This document shows positions 27,804 to 60,463 of a stretch of 64,000 bases of DNA, one piece after another; position 1 is the first letter of the stretch; each line of letters starts with the position of its first letter. Origin of the DNA: an uncultured Candidatus Saccharibacteria bacterium. GTDB taxonomy: Bacteria > Patescibacteriota > Saccharimonadia > Saccharimonadales > JAGQNJ01. The stretch is taken from assembly GCA_964565615.1 (NCBI GenBank), contig CAZMFO010000001.1, positions 19,513-83,512 of the forward strand. Direction: 5' to 3'. The notes beneath the pieces are model-generated. The model worked only from the letters and a program-made list of their open reading frames with translations. It was not told where the DNA came from and did no database searches. A program made the translations under genes and the position numbers.

Positions 27804-28046
27804 ATGTTTAATGAGCAGTTTATCAGCGATCATATTTGGCTCTTTCTGGGTATCTTGTTTACAGATTATCTCTTAAAGGCAATTGCGTTGTGGGTTGCCG
27901 CGCGAAAAAACTCAAAAGTATGGTTTATATTATTGTTCTTGCTAAATACTATCGGTATACTACCTCTGTTTTATCTTTTTTACTTTAGTAAAAAAGAAGA
28001 TTCTACAAAGGATATTGCCGATAATTCTACCAAAGAGCCAAGCTAA
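27804..28046 (+). CDS. Small two-TM membrane protein, PLDc_N-like
   Basis: FILLFLLNTIGILPLFYLFYF pattern. 80 aa. Preceded by a TGaTACAAT -10 box. Confidence 0.35.
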   Translation: MFNEQFISDHIWLFLGILFTDYLLKAIALWVAARKNSKVWFILLFLLNTIGILPLFYLFYFSKKEDSTKDIADNSTKEPS

Positions 28047-28059
28047 TAAAAGGATAAGT

Positions 28060-28869
28060 ATGTTAAATAAATCTAAAAAGATATCAAAACATAAAAAACA
28101 AGTAACGAGCGAACCAAAAGCCAAAAGAGTACATTTATTTTTAGCATTTTTTTATGCTGTTCAAGCTAGTTTATTGACGCTTTTCGCTTCTACTCGTCAG
28201 TATTCTTTAGTTACAAACTATCTGGTTAAAGATCCACTTATTAGCACCAACAATAATACTGTTTTAGTATCGGCGACAAAAACAGTTGTTGATGTTAGCC
28301 TAGCCAATGTTCTTTTGGCTATTTTGTTATTTGCTGTTTTTTATCATCTATTTCTTGCCACATTGCTGAAGAAGCGTAGTGCAGTGCAGATCAAGGCGGG
28401 AGTCAATAAATATCATTGGCTTGATGTAGCTATTAGTAATTCTTTAATTGTTTTTGCTCTTTGTTTGATGTTTGGGATTTTTGATCTGGTAGCCATCTTG
28501 ATGCTAATTGCTTTGAGTATAGTATTTGCTTGCGCAGGTGTGATAACAGAGGACACAAAAGCAACTCAAAAGGTCTTAAACCGTCAGGCTTTCTTTTTGG
28601 GATGGGGTAGCTGGTTGGTTTCTTGGTTGGTGTTTGCTATAAGTATCTGGAATAGCTTAGTAATTGGCGGTAGTCAATTTAGCTTGTACACCTATCTTTC
28701 GGCTCTAGTGGTACTACTATCGGGGTGTATTTTACTGCTTGGGCTGTATTATTCTGTTGTTAGGCAGGGGAAGTGGGCTAATTATAACTTTGTAACAAAA
28801 CGCTATTTAGTGTTAAGTGTTGCAACAAAAGTACTGTTGGTTTGGTTGGTGTTTGCGAGCTTATCGTAG
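28060..28869 (+). CDS. Polytopic membrane protein, hypothetical
   Basis: Multiple TM helices. SD AAAGGA before ATG 28060. Confidence 0.45.
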   Translation: MLNKSKKISKHKKQVTSEPKAKRVHLFLAFFYAVQASLLTLFASTRQYSLVTNYLVKDPLISTNNNTVLVSATKTVVDVSLANVLLAILLFAVFYHLFLATLLKKRSAVQIKAGVNKYHWLDVAISNSLIVFALCLMFGIFDLVAILMLIALSIVFACAGVITEDTKATQKVLNRQAFFLGWGSWLVSWLVFAISIWNSLVIGGSQFSLYTYLSALVVLLSGCILLLGLYYSVVRQGKWANYNFVTKRYLVLSVATKVLLVWLVFASLS

Positions 28870-53109: not shown

Positions 53110-53865
53110 TTGTTCGGCTGGTATCATTTAACTAGTGAGGAGTATGATAGTTTAATGACCAGCAAGGGTAATTTTGATAATAGCCAGCAGGCACTCGGTC
53201 TATTGTATAATGTTGCCGAAGACTTAAAAGTACCGTTTTATAGAATACTTAATGAGCTAACTGTTGGAGAGTGTGATTACGGACATAGTCAAGCACATAT
53301 TATTGCCGAAGCATCGCTAAAGATGCTCGATAGTTACTTAGTTAGCACTCAAATCTACACAGGTCAGCAAACCCTTGTTATAGAGCCGGTATCTGCCCAT
53401 GCAATTCTTTACGACACAGGGCAACAACTATCTAATTTGGCTCGCTTGCATAATTTTGATATACAACTAAATATTCAACGCAATGTCGGACAGATTATGG
53501 CAAACTACCAGGCATTACAATCTGCAATTACTAGTATCGGCTATAGTTTTTTGTATAATTACGATGCCTCAAAACGCAACAAGAAAACTCTTTTGCTTAG
53601 CTTGCAGGCAAAACAAAATAGGGCAGAAATTGGGGTGTATAGTAGCGACAGTTATTTGTCGGCCAATAGTTTACAAAGAGTGCGCCAACTGCGAGGGCGT
53701 GCTCGGGTTCCGATTACAGAATTTTCGCACGGCAGTAGTAGCGGTTTAATCATTGCCGATGAATTATTTAATGTTATGGCTACCAAGATGCAAGCCAGCA
53801 AGTTCAACAATTTGCGTGGGGTAAAAGCATCCTTACTCCCCAGCAGGCAGTTGAGTCTAATATGA
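53110..53865 (+). CDS. Hypothetical protein (251 aa)
   Basis: ORF only. Its end overlaps the next gene. Confidence 0.45.
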   Translation: MFGWYHLTSEEYDSLMTSKGNFDNSQQALGLLYNVAEDLKVPFYRILNELTVGECDYGHSQAHIIAEASLKMLDSYLVSTQIYTGQQTLVIEPVSAHAILYDTGQQLSNLARLHNFDIQLNIQRNVGQIMANYQALQSAITSIGYSFLYNYDASKRNKKTLLLSLQAKQNRAEIGVYSSDSYLSANSLQRVRQLRGRARVPITEFSHGSSSGLIIADELFNVMATKMQASKFNNLRGVKASLLPSRQLSLI

Positions 53866-54257
53866 CAAACTCCTCAAATAAGCCACTTGATATTTTTTTG
53901 ATAGAACCCGACGGTATAATTGGGGAGCTGTTTCAAAAAGCGTTGACAGTAGAGGGTTATAAAACAAAATATGTTACTTCTGCACAGCAGGCCGTCGAGT
54001 TTTTAGACCGAAGAAAAGTAAAGCTGATAATTTTAGAGCTTCAATTAAGGCTCCACAACGGAATAGAGTTAATAAACGAAATACGATCTTATCCAGACAC
54101 AAACGATATTCCGGTTATCGTATTATCTTATGTCCCAGAACAAGATGTTTCTGCCTTGATCCAGACAAGGCAATATAAAATAGTTAAGTACTTATACAAA
54201 CCTCAGACATCATTTAGTCGTTTACTTAAGGCAATAAAAGAAGTGTTAGATAAATGA
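53862..54257 (+). CDS. Receiver-like (pseudo-receiver) domain protein
   Basis: REC-fold pattern, but the phospho-acceptor position reads LIILELQL (Glu instead of Asp). Confidence 0.55.
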   Translation: MTNSSNKPLDIFLIEPDGIIGELFQKALTVEGYKTKYVTSAQQAVEFLDRRKVKLIILELQLRLHNGIELINEIRSYPDTNDIPVIVLSYVPEQDVSALIQTRQYKIVKYLYKPQTSFSRLLKAIKEVLDK

Positions 54258-54992: not shown

Positions 54993-55415
54993 ATGGGTTT
55001 GTTTAAAAAAGCTGGTATCGCAGTAGCGATATCTTTACCAATAGTGGCGGGTATTTCTAGTGAGCTTGAATCGAAACCTAAGGTTTTGGAGGGTCTGTCC
55101 TACGATGCAACAACATCTAACGAGGAGGTTAGTCAGATAGTGGATGATGATTTGGCCTATTCACCAAGTGGGACAGCAGAGAGCTCAGAAGATTATTCGG
55201 ACGGTCTTAAATATATCCTAATTGTCGGAGTTAGTGGATGTATTGCAGTAGCAGGGGCTGGAGTGCTGTTGCTAAGGAGAGCGAATAATATAATCAGTAA
55301 TCAGCCACCAGATATTGAAGCCGAAATGCCGGACTTGTATTATTTTCTTGCCATAAATCGTCTTGATCCTATTGGGCCAGAGGACGATCCTAACTTTTGG
55401 CCACCAAAATCATAA
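54993..55415 (+). CDS. Hypothetical exported/membrane protein with an acidic domain and a C-terminal TM
   Basis: Signal-peptide-like N-terminus. TM (ILIVGVSGCIAVAGAGVLLL), then RRAN. Confidence 0.4.
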   Translation: MGLFKKAGIAVAISLPIVAGISSELESKPKVLEGLSYDATTSNEEVSQIVDDDLAYSPSGTAESSEDYSDGLKYILIVGVSGCIAVAGAGVLLLRRANNIISNQPPDIEAEMPDLYYFLAINRLDPIGPEDDPNFWPPKS

Positions 55416-55451
55416 AACCGTTGAGAACATAATCTGTTATAATTGGCTAAT

Positions 55452-56777
55452 ATGAGTAAAGAAGTAAAAATGGAAGATATAGTTAGCTTGTGTAAAAGGC
55501 GTGGGTTTGTTTTTCAGGGGAGCGAGGTTTACGGTGGATTAAGTGGGACTTGGGATTATGGTCCGCTTGGTTTAATGCTCAAAAAGAATATTCAGAATCT
55601 ATGGTGGCAAACATTTGTAGATAATCGAGATGATATGTATGGGGTGGATGCGTCTATTTTGATGAACCAAAAAGTCTGGCAGGCCAGTGGCCATGTTGAT
55701 ACCTTTTCTGATCCTTTGGTTGAGTGCGCAAAATGTAAGGTACGATTAAGGGCAGATAAGCTTGATGGAACAGAAAAATGCCAAAAGGGTGGTGCTCACG
55801 AGTTTGGTGAAGCTCGGCAATTTAATATGATGTTCCGCACCCAAATTGGTCCGGCAGAAGATTTTGATAATCAGCATTCTGGCGACAATCCAAGTAGGGT
55901 GTACTTAAGGCCAGAAACTGCACAGGGCATTTTTACAAACTTTCGTAATATCGTAGATACATTTTACCCAGACCTACCTTTTGGTATTGCTCAAATTGGT
56001 AAGGCCTTCCGTAACGAGATCTCGCCACGAGACTTTGTTTTTCGGTCACGCGAGTTTGAACAAATGGAGATAGAATATTTTATTCATCCAGATAATTGGC
56101 AAAAAGAATTCGAGCAATGGATTGATGCTATTGTAGCCTTTTTGGATAAACTTGGTTTACCAAAAGATAAGGTCCATCAACTTGAAGTGTCAAATGATGA
56201 GAGGGCACATTATTCAAAACGAACAGTAGATTTTGAATTTGATTTTCCAATTGGTAGGGAAGAGCTACTAGGTCTAGCTTATCGTACTGATTTTGATTTG
56301 ATGAATATCCAGCGAGTGAGCGGAAAGAGTATGGATTATCTAATTAAAGGTACTAACGAACGACTTGTTCCGCATGTTATTGAGCCGAGTTTTGGGGTTG
56401 AGAGGTTAATTATGGCGGTTCTTTCAAGTGCTTACGAAGAGGATCAGCAGAACGGTGAGAAGCGTGTATTTTTAGCACTGCCAAATAATCTTGCACCAGT
56501 TAGATTGGCTGTTTCGCCACTATTAAAGAACAAGCCAGAGCTGGTGCAAAAGGCTCAAGAAGTTTATAAAACCCTAAAGAACGAGTTTGGTAATGTTATG
56601 TGGGACGACAACGGCAATATCGGTAAGCGTTACCGTCGCCAAGACGAGATCGGCACACCGTATTGCGTAGTGATAGATTTCCAAACCTTAGAGGACGACA
56701 CCGTGACTGTCCGCAACCGCGACACCACCAAACAAGAACGAGTACAAATTGTAGAATTAAAATCTAAACTAGGCTGA
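55452..56777 (+). CDS. glyS: Glycyl-tRNA synthetase, alpha2 (archaeal/eukaryal-like) type
   Basis: RRGFVFQGSEVYGGLSGTWDYGPLG; class II. Start at ATG 55452; the track's TTG at 55443 lies inside the TATAAT box. Confidence 0.9.
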   Translation: MSKEVKMEDIVSLCKRRGFVFQGSEVYGGLSGTWDYGPLGLMLKKNIQNLWWQTFVDNRDDMYGVDASILMNQKVWQASGHVDTFSDPLVECAKCKVRLRADKLDGTEKCQKGGAHEFGEARQFNMMFRTQIGPAEDFDNQHSGDNPSRVYLRPETAQGIFTNFRNIVDTFYPDLPFGIAQIGKAFRNEISPRDFVFRSREFEQMEIEYFIHPDNWQKEFEQWIDAIVAFLDKLGLPKDKVHQLEVSNDERAHYSKRTVDFEFDFPIGREELLGLAYRTDFDLMNIQRVSGKSMDYLIKGTNERLVPHVIEPSFGVERLIMAVLSSAYEEDQQNGEKRVFLALPNNLAPVRLAVSPLLKNKPELVQKAQEVYKTLKNEFGNVMWDDNGNIGKRYRRQDEIGTPYCVVIDFQTLEDDTVTVRNRDTTKQERVQIVELKSKLG

Positions 56778-57020
56778 ATTACGCAAGATGTCAATCATTA
56801 GAGATTCGGATGTTTTTGTACGCAGTTGTATGCAAAGATGACAAACATGATTGATTGCTTCAGAAATCGAAACAGTTGCTATGGCGTTTGATGTATTTGA
56901 CAATTTTTGGCCGATGTATAGATTTGAAACAGTAGATTTGCGACTTTGAGTTTTTTGGTCTGTTAGGCTTTTTATCTGTGTTAAAATTTGTTAAGAAGGT
57001 TTGGAATTTAGGATAAACAT

Positions 57021-57482
57021 ATGAGCAGGGAATTTGTTGATATTGATGAACTAGAATCAATGGCTGGGACAGTTTGTACAGTTTTTGGTTTTGCCCCAGA
57101 AGAACTTTTTTTGGATCAAGACCTTCTAGCAAGTTTAATTGACCCTATAAGATCTAGCGCCCAACAGCTTTTGGGGCAATGGGTTCATAAAGTTGTGCCG
57201 GGCTATTATTTGGGTTGTAGTGTATTGGGCGAAAACGATTTGGTTAATGCTGGTGAAGAGGACTTATTTTACGGTATCTATAGAGGAATTGATATGATAG
57301 GAGGTAAAGAGCCTTTGTTGTCTGGTAATCACACTGCCACATTTTATCCGAGCATTGTGTTTGAGACGATTGACAATGATGAGCCTCCTTATAGTCTGGC
57401 GCAAACATACTTGCATATTGCCGTACCTTTGGTTGACAACATTGTGGCTATTGAAAAGATTGGATTTGGTTATGCAAACTGA
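57021..57482 (+). CDS. Hypothetical acidic protein (153 aa)
   Basis: ORF only. Confidence 0.4.
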   Translation: MSREFVDIDELESMAGTVCTVFGFAPEELFLDQDLLASLIDPIRSSAQQLLGQWVHKVVPGYYLGCSVLGENDLVNAGEEDLFYGIYRGIDMIGGKEPLLSGNHTATFYPSIVFETIDNDEPPYSLAQTYLHIAVPLVDNIVAIEKIGFGYAN

Positions 57483-57497
57483 AGCAGAGTCAAAATT

Positions 57498-58019
57498 ATG
57501 AGATCTGATTTAGAATTACCAAGTATTGAAGAATATGAACTTCTTCGGGGAGCTTTTGAAGAACTTAGATACTCTGAATGGTCAAGAACCAAGTGCGTTA
57601 AGGGCGATTTGAGCGCTCTTTATATTCGTGCCGAAAAGCTCTGTTCTGATTTAGATTTTTTAGCGTGGCCACCGTTTACCTTGTGTATTAACGGAATAAT
57701 TAGGTCTTATACTGGAGGTAGCAGTCTAGTAGTTACTTATCGAGAACTCGCACATAACTCTAAGACCGAGAACTCTTCTGTTAATCATAATTACACCTTA
57801 AGAGAAGAAGGTGGAATATTAGTAGAGTTTGGGCAAAGTATTCTGGCTTGTCCGCAAATTTTGCCCCCAACAACCGATGTTGACATAAGAAGCTCTGACG
57901 CTTTACTTGATCAAGTCGCAGAGGGCGAGAAGATTCTGCGACAAAATACAGGCAACCAGCTAGAGCTTGCGAGTGGTGATTGTGGGATATTGTTTGATAG
58001 AATTACCGAATTTTTATAA
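57498..58019 (+). CDS. Hypothetical protein (173 aa)
   Basis: ORF only. Confidence 0.4.
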   Translation: MRSDLELPSIEEYELLRGAFEELRYSEWSRTKCVKGDLSALYIRAEKLCSDLDFLAWPPFTLCINGIIRSYTGGSSLVVTYRELAHNSKTENSSVNHNYTLREEGGILVEFGQSILACPQILPPTTDVDIRSSDALLDQVAEGEKILRQNTGNQLELASGDCGILFDRITEFL

Positions 58020-58104
58020 ACTGATTAGGCAAAAAATACAGCAACAGATTCTCTATTCTTAGAGTAAAATGTACAAAGATTACTAATATCAAAATAGGAG
58101 AAAT

Positions 58105-59136
58105 ATGGAAGCAAAAACCCTCACAAATGCTGATAGTAAAACCCCAAAAAAAAGCGATGATTTAGAACAAGAAACAGATGTCTTTGCTTGGGCAAATAAC
58201 CTAGTGCAGATTAAAGAAGAATTGACTATTGAGCTATTTTTGTTTAGCAAGAATTTCGTTGTCTATCGGGCACAGGTTGGTAAATCACTTCATCGCAATT
58301 TAGAGACTTTGCTTCTAGATAATTTGCTAGAAGCAGTCTTAGATGGTGCCGACAGTGGTCTAGTAGTACGAAATTTTGAAGACGCCGAAGAAGAAAAGAA
58401 TATACTGCAACGGACACGATTAAAAAATGTTGAGAACGCTCATATGGTGTTAAATTGGTTAAAAACTCAAGAACACGAGATAGAACCATTTGTTGAGGAG
58501 GAACACGATTTTAAGAGAATTAAGGGGTTGGTAGCGCGATGTAGCCACAAAGATTTACCTAAACCATTTTATGTTATTAAGGCTTTGCCTCAATCACAAA
58601 TTATGAAGGGCAGTGCAGGGTGGATGTTGCGAGGCGGTAGGTTTGTACCTTTTGATGCCGAAGGAGCATTGCGTATTCCGGCAGATAACCAACTTTTGGT
58701 GCTAGAGGGTGACATTTATGTCTTTAATCAAGCCAAGTTGGCTAGTTTGTTTGGCTATGATGCAAAAAAATATACCATTGCCGAACAAAAGCTAAAACTA
58801 ATTGCCGAACATTTTAAACTAAGTATTGATACAGATCAGACCATAGAACAAATGGTCAAAGGTAAGAAGGCACTAGTAAATAAACTCCAAAAAATTGATC
58901 CGACAAAGGTCACGCAAGAAAGGCTTATGCAACAAGCTAACGAGCTTGATTTGCCACTAATGGTTGATGGAGCGGGGGCAATAATTATTATGGATAGCAA
59001 AGATCTTAGCGTGTTTGTTAATCTTTTGAATGATGATTATATTGAGTCACCGATAACTAACGAGCGATACGAAATAACTGGTAAAAAACCCTTAAAACCA
59101 CCTTCTGATGACGACCTTTTAAAGCAAGTCTTGTAG
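58105..59136 (+). CDS. Hypothetical protein (343 aa)
   Basis: SD AGGAG. No motif I can name with confidence. Confidence 0.5.
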   Translation: MEAKTLTNADSKTPKKSDDLEQETDVFAWANNLVQIKEELTIELFLFSKNFVVYRAQVGKSLHRNLETLLLDNLLEAVLDGADSGLVVRNFEDAEEEKNILQRTRLKNVENAHMVLNWLKTQEHEIEPFVEEEHDFKRIKGLVARCSHKDLPKPFYVIKALPQSQIMKGSAGWMLRGGRFVPFDAEGALRIPADNQLLVLEGDIYVFNQAKLASLFGYDAKKYTIAEQKLKLIAEHFKLSIDTDQTIEQMVKGKKALVNKLQKIDPTKVTQERLMQQANELDLPLMVDGAGAIIIMDSKDLSVFVNLLNDDYIESPITNERYEITGKKPLKPPSDDDLLKQVL

Positions 59137-59178
59137 TTAGACGATAATAGTCGTTTGGTAGTGATATAATGTTAGTAA

Positions 59179-59760
59179 ATGAGATTTAGAAGAAAGCCCA
59201 AAACAGCAGAGAAAAAATCGGATGTTTATGCTTTTATAGATAGTCAAAATCTCAATCTTGGTGTCCAGCGTGTTGGCTGGAAGATGGACTGGAGAAAATT
59301 GCGACAATTTTTGGCAAACAAATACGGTGTAACAAAGGCTTATATGTTTATTGGCTACATATCTGACAACGAGGATATGTACAACCAGCTTTATGAAGCG
59401 GGCTATTTAATTGTACTAAAGCCAACGGTTGAGTCCTCTGCGTCAACAGAAGAAAGCCAGTCAAAACCACAAGTTAAGGGTAATATCGACGCCGAATTGG
59501 TGCTTTATGCGATGAAAGAAATGCCAAATTACGCGCAGGCGATTATTGTTTCTGGTGACGGTGATTTTTATTGCTTGGCAGAATATCTTGAGTCTAAAAA
59601 CCGGCTTAAGCATATTATGACTCCAAACTGGAAGTATTCTACACTATTAAAACCATACGAAAAATTTATTATTCGTCTTGACCAAAAACGCAAAGAACTA
59701 GAGCACATAGACTACCATCCCAAAAACAAAAATCTAAAAAGATCAAAGAAAACTGGTTAA
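59179..59760 (+). CDS. NYN-domain (LabA-like, PIN-fold) putative ribonuclease
   Basis: YAFIDSQNLN, KGNIDAELV, SGDGDF acidic triad layout. Confidence 0.65.
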   Translation: MRFRRKPKTAEKKSDVYAFIDSQNLNLGVQRVGWKMDWRKLRQFLANKYGVTKAYMFIGYISDNEDMYNQLYEAGYLIVLKPTVESSASTEESQSKPQVKGNIDAELVLYAMKEMPNYAQAIIVSGDGDFYCLAEYLESKNRLKHIMTPNWKYSTLLKPYEKFIIRLDQKRKELEHIDYHPKNKNLKRSKKTG

Positions 59761-59845: not shown

Positions 59846-60463
59846 TCATTCATCGTTACTTTGATTATCCTCTATTAGTTTTGCAATAACAACTAACCTT
59901 TGTTTGGAGGTCCACATTGGGGTACAGGTGTATAGGGTTAGGGTAGGGTCAGCTGTTTTCTGCTCTACCTCAATCTGGTGGGGTTCAACAATTTTTGTTT
60001 CGACGACTTGATACAAATATTCTTTGCCCCGCCAATAAAGTGCCAGTTTATCGCCTGTTTTAATTTTATCTAGATGATAAAAAACCGCCGGATCATTGTA
60101 AGTAAAGCGATGTCCAACGATTACTGTGTTGCTATCTTTGTCTGGGGTAGAAGTTTGTGGCCTTCTCCAGACTCCTTTTTTTAATGCGTCGGCATACTTA
60201 CCTTCGTTTATCGGTTCGTCTAATCCAATTTGAGGAATCACTAAACGATTATCTTGGGGGATTGGTTTGGTACCCGGTTTGTTGTCATCTGAATAAGCCG
60301 AACTACTAGATATCTTGCCAGTTTTCAGATTAATCCAAAAAGTTAGCTGTGGCAGTAAGGGCATAGCGATAAGATATATCCCAAGTCCAATGACAACAAC
60401 CGACAAAAAATCGTTAAATAATCGTAGCTTCTTATCTTTATGCTTGTATTTAAACTCTCGCAC
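59846..60463 (-). CDS. Sortase-family transpeptidase
   Basis: N-terminal TM. VIVGHRFTYND (His). TLTLYTCTP (catalytic Cys in TLxTC). Confidence 0.8.
   Translation of the reverse strand: MREFKYKHKDKKLRLFNDFLSVVVIGLGIYLIAMPLLPQLTFWINLKTGKISSSSAYSDDNKPGTKPIPQDNRLVIPQIGLDEPINEGKYADALKKGVWRRPQTSTPDKDSNTVIVGHRFTYNDPAVFYHLDKIKTGDKLALYWRGKEYLYQVVETKIVEPHQIEVEQKTADPTLTLYTCTPMWTSKQRLVVIAKLIEDNQSNDE

Follow-up and report, generated by a model that had tools for sequence, protein, structure and literature searches.

A lone KwaB-like gene on the conserved chromosomal backbone of Saccharibacteria, next to a variable slot after glyS

The region between glyS and the sortase gene

We describe here four co-directional open reading frames (ORF1 to ORF4) that lie between glyS and a convergent sortase gene in a 64,000-nucleotide stretch of DNA from an uncultured Candidatus Saccharibacteria bacterium (contig CAZMFO010000001.1); this whole stretch is called the window, and its coordinates are used below unless a related locus is named. 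An earlier reading of the letters alone (the sequence-only reading) had delimited co-directional ORFs of 153, 173, 343 and 193 amino acids (aa) between these two genes, coordinates which were confirmed, and had regarded them as an accessory-looking island resembling a toxin/immunity or anti-phage module. The gene of main concern is ORF3, which encodes a distant homologue of KwaB, a protein of the anti-phage system Kiwa, and which occupies a conserved position in Saccharibacteria without the Kiwa partner KwaA. The features of the region are as follows.

55443-56777, + strand: glyS, class II glycyl-tRNA synthetase (GlyRS; Pfam tRNA-synt_2b and HGTP_anticodon), the upstream anchor of the conserved backbone
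56779-56946, + strand: pseudogene remnant, recognised by a tblastn match to a 375-aa gene of the related locus L001
56897-56924, + strand: tentative promoter-like site ahead of ORF1, TTGACA-16-TAGATT, with 10/12 consensus positions
57021-57482, + strand: ORF1, 153 aa, soluble acidic orphan in the slot just after glyS
57498-58019, + strand: ORF2, 173 aa, acidic orphan
58105-59136, + strand: ORF3, 343 aa, KwaB-like by Pfam, PADLOC, hhalign and Foldseek
59179-59760, + strand: ORF4, 193 aa, NYN gene (PF01936; YAFIDSQNLN / KGNIDAELV / SGDGDF)
59846-60463, - strand: convergent sortase gene (PF04203, 1.5e-28), the downstream boundary

All four ORFs are real genes, as each has homologues and shows limited amino-acid divergence from the closest complete genome (L001, CP060231.1). 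The nonsynonymous divergence (dN) from this genome is 0.110 for ORF3 and 0.112 for the NYN gene, compared with 0.199 for GlyRS, 0.21 for ORF2 and 0.31 for ORF1; synonymous sites are saturated between the window and L001, which precluded a dN/dS ratio.

ORF3 is a distant homologue of KwaB

The sequence-only reading had found no motif in the 343-aa protein. This was wrong, as ORF3 scores 45.2 bits against the Pfam family PF16162 (KwaB/DUF4868), passing the gathering cut-off of 26.3. It also matches eight PADLOC models of KwaB (best 2.8e-15, over residues 34-331), and scores 55.4 bits against the NCBIfam KwaB equivalog NF041623, below the cut-off of 200. Since sequence searches of the PDB with ORF3 and with its family profile gave no match, linking ORF3 to the KwaB structures required an intermediate profile and a structural comparison by Foldseek. 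A 40-sequence family profile of ORF3 (alignment A1) was compared by hhalign with one built from canonical-like KwaB proteins, and the two align with a probability of 100% (E=3e-45, 310 columns), and the latter profile matches the KwaB chains of the PDB at 2.4e-19. An AlphaFold2 model of ORF3 (pLDDT 77.9, pTM 0.69) was then compared with the PDB by Foldseek, whose six best matches are all KwaB (9mrx, 9mtn, 9nyu; E from 3.5e-11, probability 1.0, ~330 aligned columns), the next match being insignificant. The fold, profile and PADLOC checks that the sequence-only reading had proposed thus led to KwaB for ORF3 and to the PADLOC NYN model for ORF4.

ORF3 is a full-length KwaB homologue, and this homology is secure in spite of the low identity (~16%). 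The full-length alignment gives it the KwaB-type layout of an N-terminal domain followed by a C-terminal DUF4868. With KwaB of the Kiwa system of E. coli O55:H7 (9mtn, 9nyu, 9mrx), its best structural match in the PDB, it has in common the family, the two domains, a length of ~315-345 aa, the C-terminal motif LNDDY..S..T...Y...K and two basic DNA-contact positions. A kinship with the nucleoid protein YejK was considered and rejected: the Foldseek match is weak (E=0.064, probability 0.08), there is no sequence support, and ORF3 is acidic.

A KwaB homologue without KwaA

Kiwa requires KwaA, a protein with four transmembrane (TM) segments that tethers KwaB dimers and senses membrane stress, and the removal of either kwaA or kwaB abolishes defence (PMC11785009). 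In E. coli, the activated KwaB dimers bind phage DNA via DUF4868 and stall its replication (PMC11785009). A KwaA membrane partner was found neither at the window locus nor in 167 related loci. The genes flanking ORF3 encode soluble proteins, none of the seven multi-TM proteins of the window matches a KwaA model in PADLOC, and no recurrent membrane neighbour of the KwaB-like gene was found in 87 related loci.

In the closest relatives, a gene for a 410-aa protein that has 5-6 TM segments and matches nothing in Pfam or PADLOC (TM410; L001 7120-8352, L087 8789-10021, and also L007 and L008) lies directly 3′ of the KwaB-like gene, making it a candidate lineage-specific membrane partner. It is cleanly absent from the window, where the gap between the KwaB-like gene and the NYN gene is merely 42 bp. 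TM410 and TM197, two families found near the KwaB-like gene in some relatives, were rejected as analogues of KwaA, having no match to a KwaA model or to Pfam.

The contact residues of KwaB were mapped onto ORF3 using a sequence of E. coli KwaB (residues 5-313) rebuilt from a HMMER alignment, the residue identities of which agree with those named in PMC11785009. None of the seven KwaA-contact residues listed in that paper is conserved in ORF3 (R21 corresponds to E43, R35 to Q57, N42 to R64, P100 to E123, N101 to H124, Q103 to E127 and Y157 to R179), and in the ORF3 family the KwaA-docking loop has become a highly conserved acidic/His motif, WLKtQEHEIE.FvEEEHD.KRiKG. Six DNA-contact residues of DUF4868 were mapped as well (N134, R142, R167, D169, K187 and R233). 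In this alignment, which has 16% identity, two positions are kept basic (R142 as K168, R167 as R190), K187 and R233 align beside K211 and K260 of ORF3, both invariant in A1, and N134 and D169 are lost.

The ORF3 locus is therefore not a Kiwa system: compared with KwaB of Kiwa, ORF3 lacks the KwaA partner, has all seven KwaA contacts altered and is acidic rather than basic. It also differs in its mode of inheritance. Canonical Kiwa spreads horizontally, with more than half of its genes co-localising with mobile elements (PMC11785009), whereas the ORF3 gene is vertically inherited at a fixed chromosomal position.

Conservation and synteny of the KwaB-like gene

More than 2000 homologues of ORF3 were found, the best 120 of which are all 59-100% identical and come from metagenome-assembled genomes (MAGs) of Saccharibacteria. 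In a scan with one genome per species, the KwaB-like gene is encoded in at least 325 genomes, a lower bound, as the scan counted only genomes in which one of two peptide patterns was matched exactly. The taxonomy of 80 listed records is Saccharibacteria or Saccharimonadales, save for a few MAGs labelled otherwise. The KwaB-like proteins were not matched in the GenBank phage or plasmid collections, a metagenome scan with the canonical-like proteins P0180 and P0187 gave no match, and the literature searched held no description of this Saccharibacteria subfamily beyond table entries.

Two clades with different gene orders can be distinguished. In the first clade, the backbone on one strand runs RecO, GlyRS, a variable stretch, the KwaB-like gene, a NYN gene and/or a Pif1-like helicase gene, the glycosidase GH1 and, further on, MraZ. 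In 44 of the 87 first-clade loci the KwaB-like gene has GlyRS on its upstream side, and a Pif1-like gene is present in 46, directly downstream of the KwaB-like gene in 14 of them. The second clade (the P0138 clade, ~45% identical) comprises 292 metagenome loci, several on contigs of ~1 Mb, with the order CYTH, RNase H, Pif1, KwaB-like gene, GH1 and, further on, MraZ; Pif1 is upstream of the KwaB-like gene in all 62 loci that have enough flank.

The mean identity to the window protein is 62% for the KwaB-like protein, which is close to that of GlyRS (61%) and GH1 (64%), with 57% for NYN, 45% for RecO and 75% for MraZ. Pairwise distances of the KwaB-like protein correlate with those of MraZ (Mantel r 0.76), GH1 (0.77), NYN (0.72) and Pif1 (0.52), all with p<=0.001, which is what vertical co-inheritance predicts. 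These data firmly show that the KwaB-like gene is vertically inherited, syntenic and highly conserved in Saccharibacteria.

The GlyRS distances follow those of the KwaB-like protein poorly (Mantel r=0.34), and the identities of GlyRS in L004-L086 to that of the window (55443-56777) look bimodal, with values of ~46-49% or 55-75%. Together these two observations hint at a replacement of glyS in some Saccharibacteria lineages. The GlyRS of the window lacks a ~25-aa insertion that is present in the GlyRS of L001.

KwaB-like genes in phages

In IMG/VR, 19 loci (L091-L109) carry lone KwaB-like genes whose products have 26-49% identity. The closest one (L091 6016-6972, 49% identity) lies between an endolysin module and genes for RtcB, ArdA and RecT, and another (L092 6007-6984, 42% identity) adjoins an integrase gene. 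Fifteen contigs (L095-L109, 26-28% identity) have the order TerS, TerL, an unassigned gene, HNH and KwaB-like gene (2453-6173 in L095), and their proteins carry the N-terminal motif D[VI]F.WAN of the subfamily. A siphovirus fragment in BFVD (A0A8S5QWK1) is 39% identical. By a simple hydropathy count, no multi-TM gene lies beside the KwaB-like genes of the IMG/VR loci, and single-protein scans of IMG/VR with the intermediates P0141, P0143 and P0144 gave no match. The phage proteins thus resemble ORF3 in the D[VI]F.WAN motif, the full-length architecture and the lack of KwaA, and differ from it in being phage-encoded beside terminase/HNH, integrase or ArdA/RecT/RtcB genes and in being far less conserved.

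The apparent counterpart in Southlakia epibionticum

The only member with experimental data is SEML1_0265 of S. epibionticum, annotated as DUF4868/PF16162 in Tables S1/S2 of Wang et al. 2023 (PMC10633639), where it appears in the tables and not in the main text. In co-culture transposon sequencing (Tn-seq), with phage absent, this gene was non-essential at all three passages, with 48-58 insertions across the passage libraries and stable read counts (PMC10633639). Its 'core family' flag is 0, a flag defined on 921 families of broad distribution and not on Saccharibacteria (PMC10633639). SEML1_0265 resembles ORF3 in Pfam family and size (1014 bp), its backbone neighbours encode RNase HI, a Pif1/RecD-like helicase and GH1, and the order of SEML1_0262 to 0266 in the published table is the second-clade order. 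The surroundings differ from those in the window: the NYN gene of S. epibionticum is ~167 kb from SEML1_0265, and there is no ORF1- or ORF2-like gene among the listed neighbours. Strong natural conservation combined with dispensability in a phage-free co-culture is the signature of a conditionally useful function.

Possible function of ORF3

We consider it fairly likely that the region is vertically inherited Saccharibacteria chromosome with one variable slot and no mobile defence island, in which ORF3 is a lone member of the KwaB/DUF4868 family and a putative KwaA-free DNA binder. We hold the evolutionary and structural picture with high confidence. With its basic channel kept in part, ORF3 would have somewhat better than even chances of a nucleic-acid-binding role of some kind. 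A specifically anti-phage role, or one against mobile genetic elements, is a tentative proposal, and so, at slightly lower odds, is a role as an accessory of DNA replication, repair or competence; immunity and DNA handling with Pif1 and RNase HI are about equally plausible, and the data do not separate these roles.

Mechanistically, ORF3 may be a KwaA-independent, dimeric protein that binds foreign or replicating DNA. It would work without a membrane tether, and a different partner may dock on its remodelled acidic/His loop. The function would be conditionally useful, either as immunity to phages and incoming DNA or in DNA handling, in which case ORF3 might act together with the Pif1-like helicase and the RNase HI whose genes flank the KwaB-like gene in most relatives.

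Several points weigh against this interpretation. The AlphaFold2 model is of moderate confidence, and its global TM-score to KwaB in Foldseek is just 0.40-0.50. DNA binding is not assured because ORF3 is acidic overall (isoelectric point (pI) 5.3, vs. 8.3 for E. coli KwaB) and because four of the six mapped DNA-contact residues differ, a count which itself depends on the 16%-identity alignment. A KwaA analogue may be encoded elsewhere in the genome, beyond the window. A defence gene would not usually be so strictly conserved and syntenic, and the prevalence across Saccharibacteria is known as lower-bound counts only. The apparent correspondence between SEML1_0265 and ORF3 is one of Pfam family, length and neighbours. 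Finally, the non-essentiality of SEML1_0265 argues against a core replication role, and neither immunity nor DNA handling is decisively favoured.

The alternative that survives best, though we regard it as rather unlikely, is that ORF3 is a housekeeping-type accessory of replication, repair or DNA uptake that acts with the Pif1-like helicase and RNase HI and has no immune role. It agrees with the presence of Pif1 upstream of the gene in 62 of 62 second-clade loci and its frequent presence in the first clade, with RNase H as a frequent neighbour, with RecO and a DNA-alkylation repair gene nearby, and with a vertical descent and a conservation at the level of an aminoacyl-tRNA synthetase. Moreover, the neighbouring helicase and RNase HI of S. 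epibionticum were also non-essential or mildly required in Tn-seq (PMC10633639). However, the sole characterised relatives of ORF3 are immune effectors (PMC11785009), the lone phage copies beside ArdA, RecT, RtcB or integrase genes fit a biology of conflict, and the window genome retains the gene though no Pif1 or RNase H gene lies within the 64 kb.

ORF4, a putative NYN ribonuclease

The fourth gene had been identified in the sequence-only reading as a putative ribonuclease with a NYN domain (PIN fold), and Pfam confirms this identity: ORF4 scores 54.8 bits against PF01936 (cut-off 24.2; E 2e-14), and its catalytic residues are intact, with D21, N24, D104, D127 and D129 each at least 95% conserved among 57 unique orthologues. 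ORF4 is thus similar to the NYN/LabA-like PIN-fold nucleases in its above-cut-off match and retained acidic residues. It differs from others of this group in being a short, single-domain and basic protein (pI 9.5) that ends in a basic tail of ~45 aa, with no OST-HTH/LOTUS or other partner domain.

A gap of 42 bp separates the end of ORF3 from ORF4, and the two are probably transcribed together. In 19 of the 87 first-clade loci the KwaB-like gene is immediately followed by a NYN gene, mostly with gaps of 5-30 bp. Many other first-clade loci have the NYN gene on the upstream side or several kilobases away, and it occurs in none of 80 second-clade loci. The S. epibionticum study marks the NYN family as a core family enriched in Patescibacteria, and in that genome ~167 kb lie between the NYN gene and the DUF4868 gene (PMC10633639). 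Because the NYN gene is elsewhere or absent in these other loci, its adjacency to ORF3 in the window is the local backbone order, not an obligatory pair. ORF4 appears from its sequence to be an independent putative NYN ribonuclease, of a Patescibacteria-enriched family and with its catalytic set intact.

These data bear on a second alternative, a non-canonical anti-phage system made up of ORF3 and ORF4, in which the KwaB-like protein would sense phage DNA and the NYN ribonuclease would be the effector. The short gaps in the window and in those 19 loci, the match of the PADLOC NYN model to ORF4 (1.3e-6) and the correlated pairwise distances of the two proteins are in its favour. However, the distance correlation is expected from shared vertical descent anyway, and the scattered positions of the NYN gene in the first clade, its absence from the second, its remoteness in S. 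epibionticum and the core status of its family all make such a system improbable.

ORF1 and ORF2, two acidic orphans

The two small proteins are acidic, as had been stated from the sequence, with a pI of 4.07 for ORF1 and 4.62 for ORF2. Neither has a match in Pfam, PADLOC, NCBIfam, PHROGs or the PDB, profile searches of Pfam and the PDB included. Among 5.8 billion proteins, ORF1 falls into 4 clusters and ORF2 into 11, the latter with 42-100% identity and 34 invariant columns. Distant homologues of ORF1 were found by jackhmmer in the same post-glyS slot of L032, L045, L046 and L060. The AlphaFold2 model of ORF2 (mean pLDDT 69.7) predicts a helix, a six-stranded antiparallel sheet and C-terminal helices, and a fold search with this model gave no significant match (best CapZ, E=0.025).

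Both genes are missing from relatives with a KwaB-like protein 82% or 73% identical to that of the window. In other relatives a CYTH gene splits the pair, and ORF1 homologues also occur without ORF2. ORF1 is 29% identical to its L087 orthologue, whereas the KwaB-like protein of the L087 contig (P0010/P0012) is 78-79% identical to ORF3. It is thus firmly shown that ORF1 and ORF2 are lineage-restricted, fast-evolving acidic orphans in a variable slot.

A diverged ORF2 homologue, 46-48% identical, is located after a small Fic-domain gene and before a gene for an HD-domain protein (L089 2897-4869), with no KwaB-like neighbour; this cluster is downstream of nucleotidyltransferase-like and ABM-domain genes and is more accessory-looking than the window locus. 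ORF2 was accordingly rejected as an obligatory partner of the KwaB-like protein, the gene next to this homologue being the HD-domain one.

A third alternative holds that ORF1 and ORF2 regulate the KwaB-like protein, e.g., as acidic DNA mimics keeping it inactive, or that they are a toxin/immunity pair. The acidity of both proteins, their co-directional position immediately upstream of ORF3 and the very fast divergence of ORF1 are consistent with regulation, and the DNA mimic Gam is known to inhibit E. coli KwaB (PMC11785009). However, we deem this quite improbable, given that most genomes with the KwaB-like gene have neither ORF, that the pair is interrupted or incomplete in relatives, that an ORF2 homologue stands beside Fic and HD-domain genes without a KwaB-like gene, and that no toxin, antitoxin or defence model and no known fold is matched.

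The variable slot after glyS

The gene content between glyS and the KwaB-like gene was compared with that of two relatives. In L001, glyS is followed by genes of 197, 217 and 375 aa, ORF1, CYTH, ORF2, the KwaB-like gene, TM410 and NYN; in L087, it is followed by NUDIX, Pif1, CYTH, ORF1, CYTH, ORF2, the KwaB-like gene, TM410 and NYN. The extra slot genes of these two loci are found nowhere in the 64-kb window. The 243-bp stretch that starts right after the glyS stop codon in the window still carries the final ~56 codons of the 375-aa gene, interrupted by two in-frame stops: tblastn with residues 319-374 of L001:3181-4308 gives an identity of 54% (E=3e-15). This shows that ~2.4 kb has been deleted, taking with it the genes of 197 and 217 aa and the greater part of the 375-aa one and leaving a scar, and the locus is shrinking by deletion, not acquired.

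The sequence-only reading had pointed to short repeats in a 243-bp upstream region. The region exists, although it is a pseudogene remnant, and the repeats in it are weak: two copies each of 22 nt at 77% and of 15 nt at 80% identity, which look no stronger than the short two-copy matches that, by the repeat tool's own warning, are often due to chance. Promoter-like sites in the region are no more numerous than in shuffled sequences, and the same holds for a promoter/terminator scan; the site at 56897-56924 ahead of ORF1 is no more than plausible.

Both Saccharibacteria clades repeatedly have CYTH-domain (triphosphate tunnel) genes upstream of the KwaB-like gene (L001 4778-5392; L087 5361-5897 and 6393-7001; in the second clade, e.g., L152 1001-1546). 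In relatives they interleave with ORF1 and ORF2, and they have been lost from the window.

An origin of the region as a genomic island gained by horizontal transfer or as the remains of a prophage, which the varying content of the slot even among close relatives and the related KwaB-like genes in phages might suggest, is very improbable, as the GC content of 0.37-0.40 lies within the 0.35-0.47 of the window without compositional anomaly, there are no tRNA genes in the window and no meaningful flanking repeats, Pfam scans of the six genes and the two flanking genes revealed no integrase or transposase, deletions, with a pseudogene left as their scar, account for what differs from relatives, and the large genes inside and beside the region are syntenic across the class.

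The sequence-only reading can now be compared with these results as a whole. A variable stretch next to housekeeping genes does exist after glyS, and ORF1 and ORF2 are as narrowly distributed as a lineage-specific cluster of unknowns would suggest, but the KwaB-like and NYN genes belong to the Saccharibacteria backbone. The largely conserved syntenic position of ORF3 across the lineage, and of ORF4 within the first clade, is at odds with an accessory status of these two genes. The four genes do not form one module, as ORF1 and ORF2 are absent from close relatives and the NYN gene is absent from the second clade and distant in S. epibionticum. The supposed toxin/immunity pair found no support, since ORF1 and ORF2 match no toxin, antitoxin or defence model and their pairing is not conserved. 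The resemblance to anti-phage modules holds insofar as a defence-related family is present, with ORF3 being KwaB-like and ORF4 matching a PADLOC model, but not in that these genes make up a module. The view of the region as an accessory defence island is thus largely explained away.

Other features of the window

Beyond the sortase gene, on its 3′ side, follow a Pfam-confirmed DNA-alkylation repair gene, the GH1 glycosidase gene, a 126-aa gene and MraZ; the same order of sortase and then backbone is seen in L001, L012 and L087. No Rfam match was found in the part of the window from 52 to 64 kb. Upstream of glyS, a 140-aa acidic protein with two hydrophobic segments is encoded between RecO and glyS (54993-55415, + strand). 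It evolves extremely fast (43% identity and a dN of 0.66 vs. L001), with a C-terminal motif, PIGPEDDPNFWPPKS, that is identical in L001. A gene for a 251-aa protein without a family match runs 4 bp into the start of a stand-alone response-regulator receiver gene (PF00072; the pair at 53110-54257, + strand). This pair lies upstream of RecO in L008 and L087/L088, each of the two families occurs in 28-29 of the 87 loci, and no histidine kinase was recognised near the pair. Farther away, a 284-aa protein with seven TM segments (28015-28869, + strand) matches heliorhodopsin (PF18761, 4.3e-29), which points to a light-sensing membrane protein in a bacterium with an ultra-small genome.

Implications

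Two practical lessons follow for annotation. A lone 'KwaB' match should not be scored as a Kiwa system, and a stretch that looks accessory can be a conserved backbone with a decaying variable slot.

Few defence systems have been recognised in Saccharibacteria, which live as ultra-small episymbionts and are naturally competent. One speculative extension of our reading, which we think unlikely, is that a KwaB paralogue working without KwaA has served the whole class of Saccharibacteria since ancient times, by vertical inheritance, in the surveillance of DNA, and decides the fate of incoming DNA via a new partner of the remodelled loop, the phage copies being decoys or a means of superinfection exclusion. 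If this were true, incoming DNA would be sorted into phage DNA and DNA taken up for nucleotides or transformation, and phages, possibly those of these bacteria, would carry copies of the gene as decoys or for superinfection exclusion. Canonical Kiwa would then be one membrane-tethered specialisation of a wider group of stand-alone DUF4868 DNA binders.

The question is open to a direct test in S. epibionticum, a genetically tractable species whose apparent counterpart of ORF3 can be disrupted by transposons. Saccharibacteria and other Patescibacteria have tiny genomes, and their phage resistance is little understood. Here, a relative of a defence effector is kept without the membrane sensor, at one position and with synthetase-level conservation, in hundreds of species. 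This suggests two options, namely a lineage-specific, hard-wired function in immunity or DNA handling, or a non-immune role of the DUF4868 fold, which has not been considered in the Kiwa literature because only complete KwaA and KwaB operons were analysed there.

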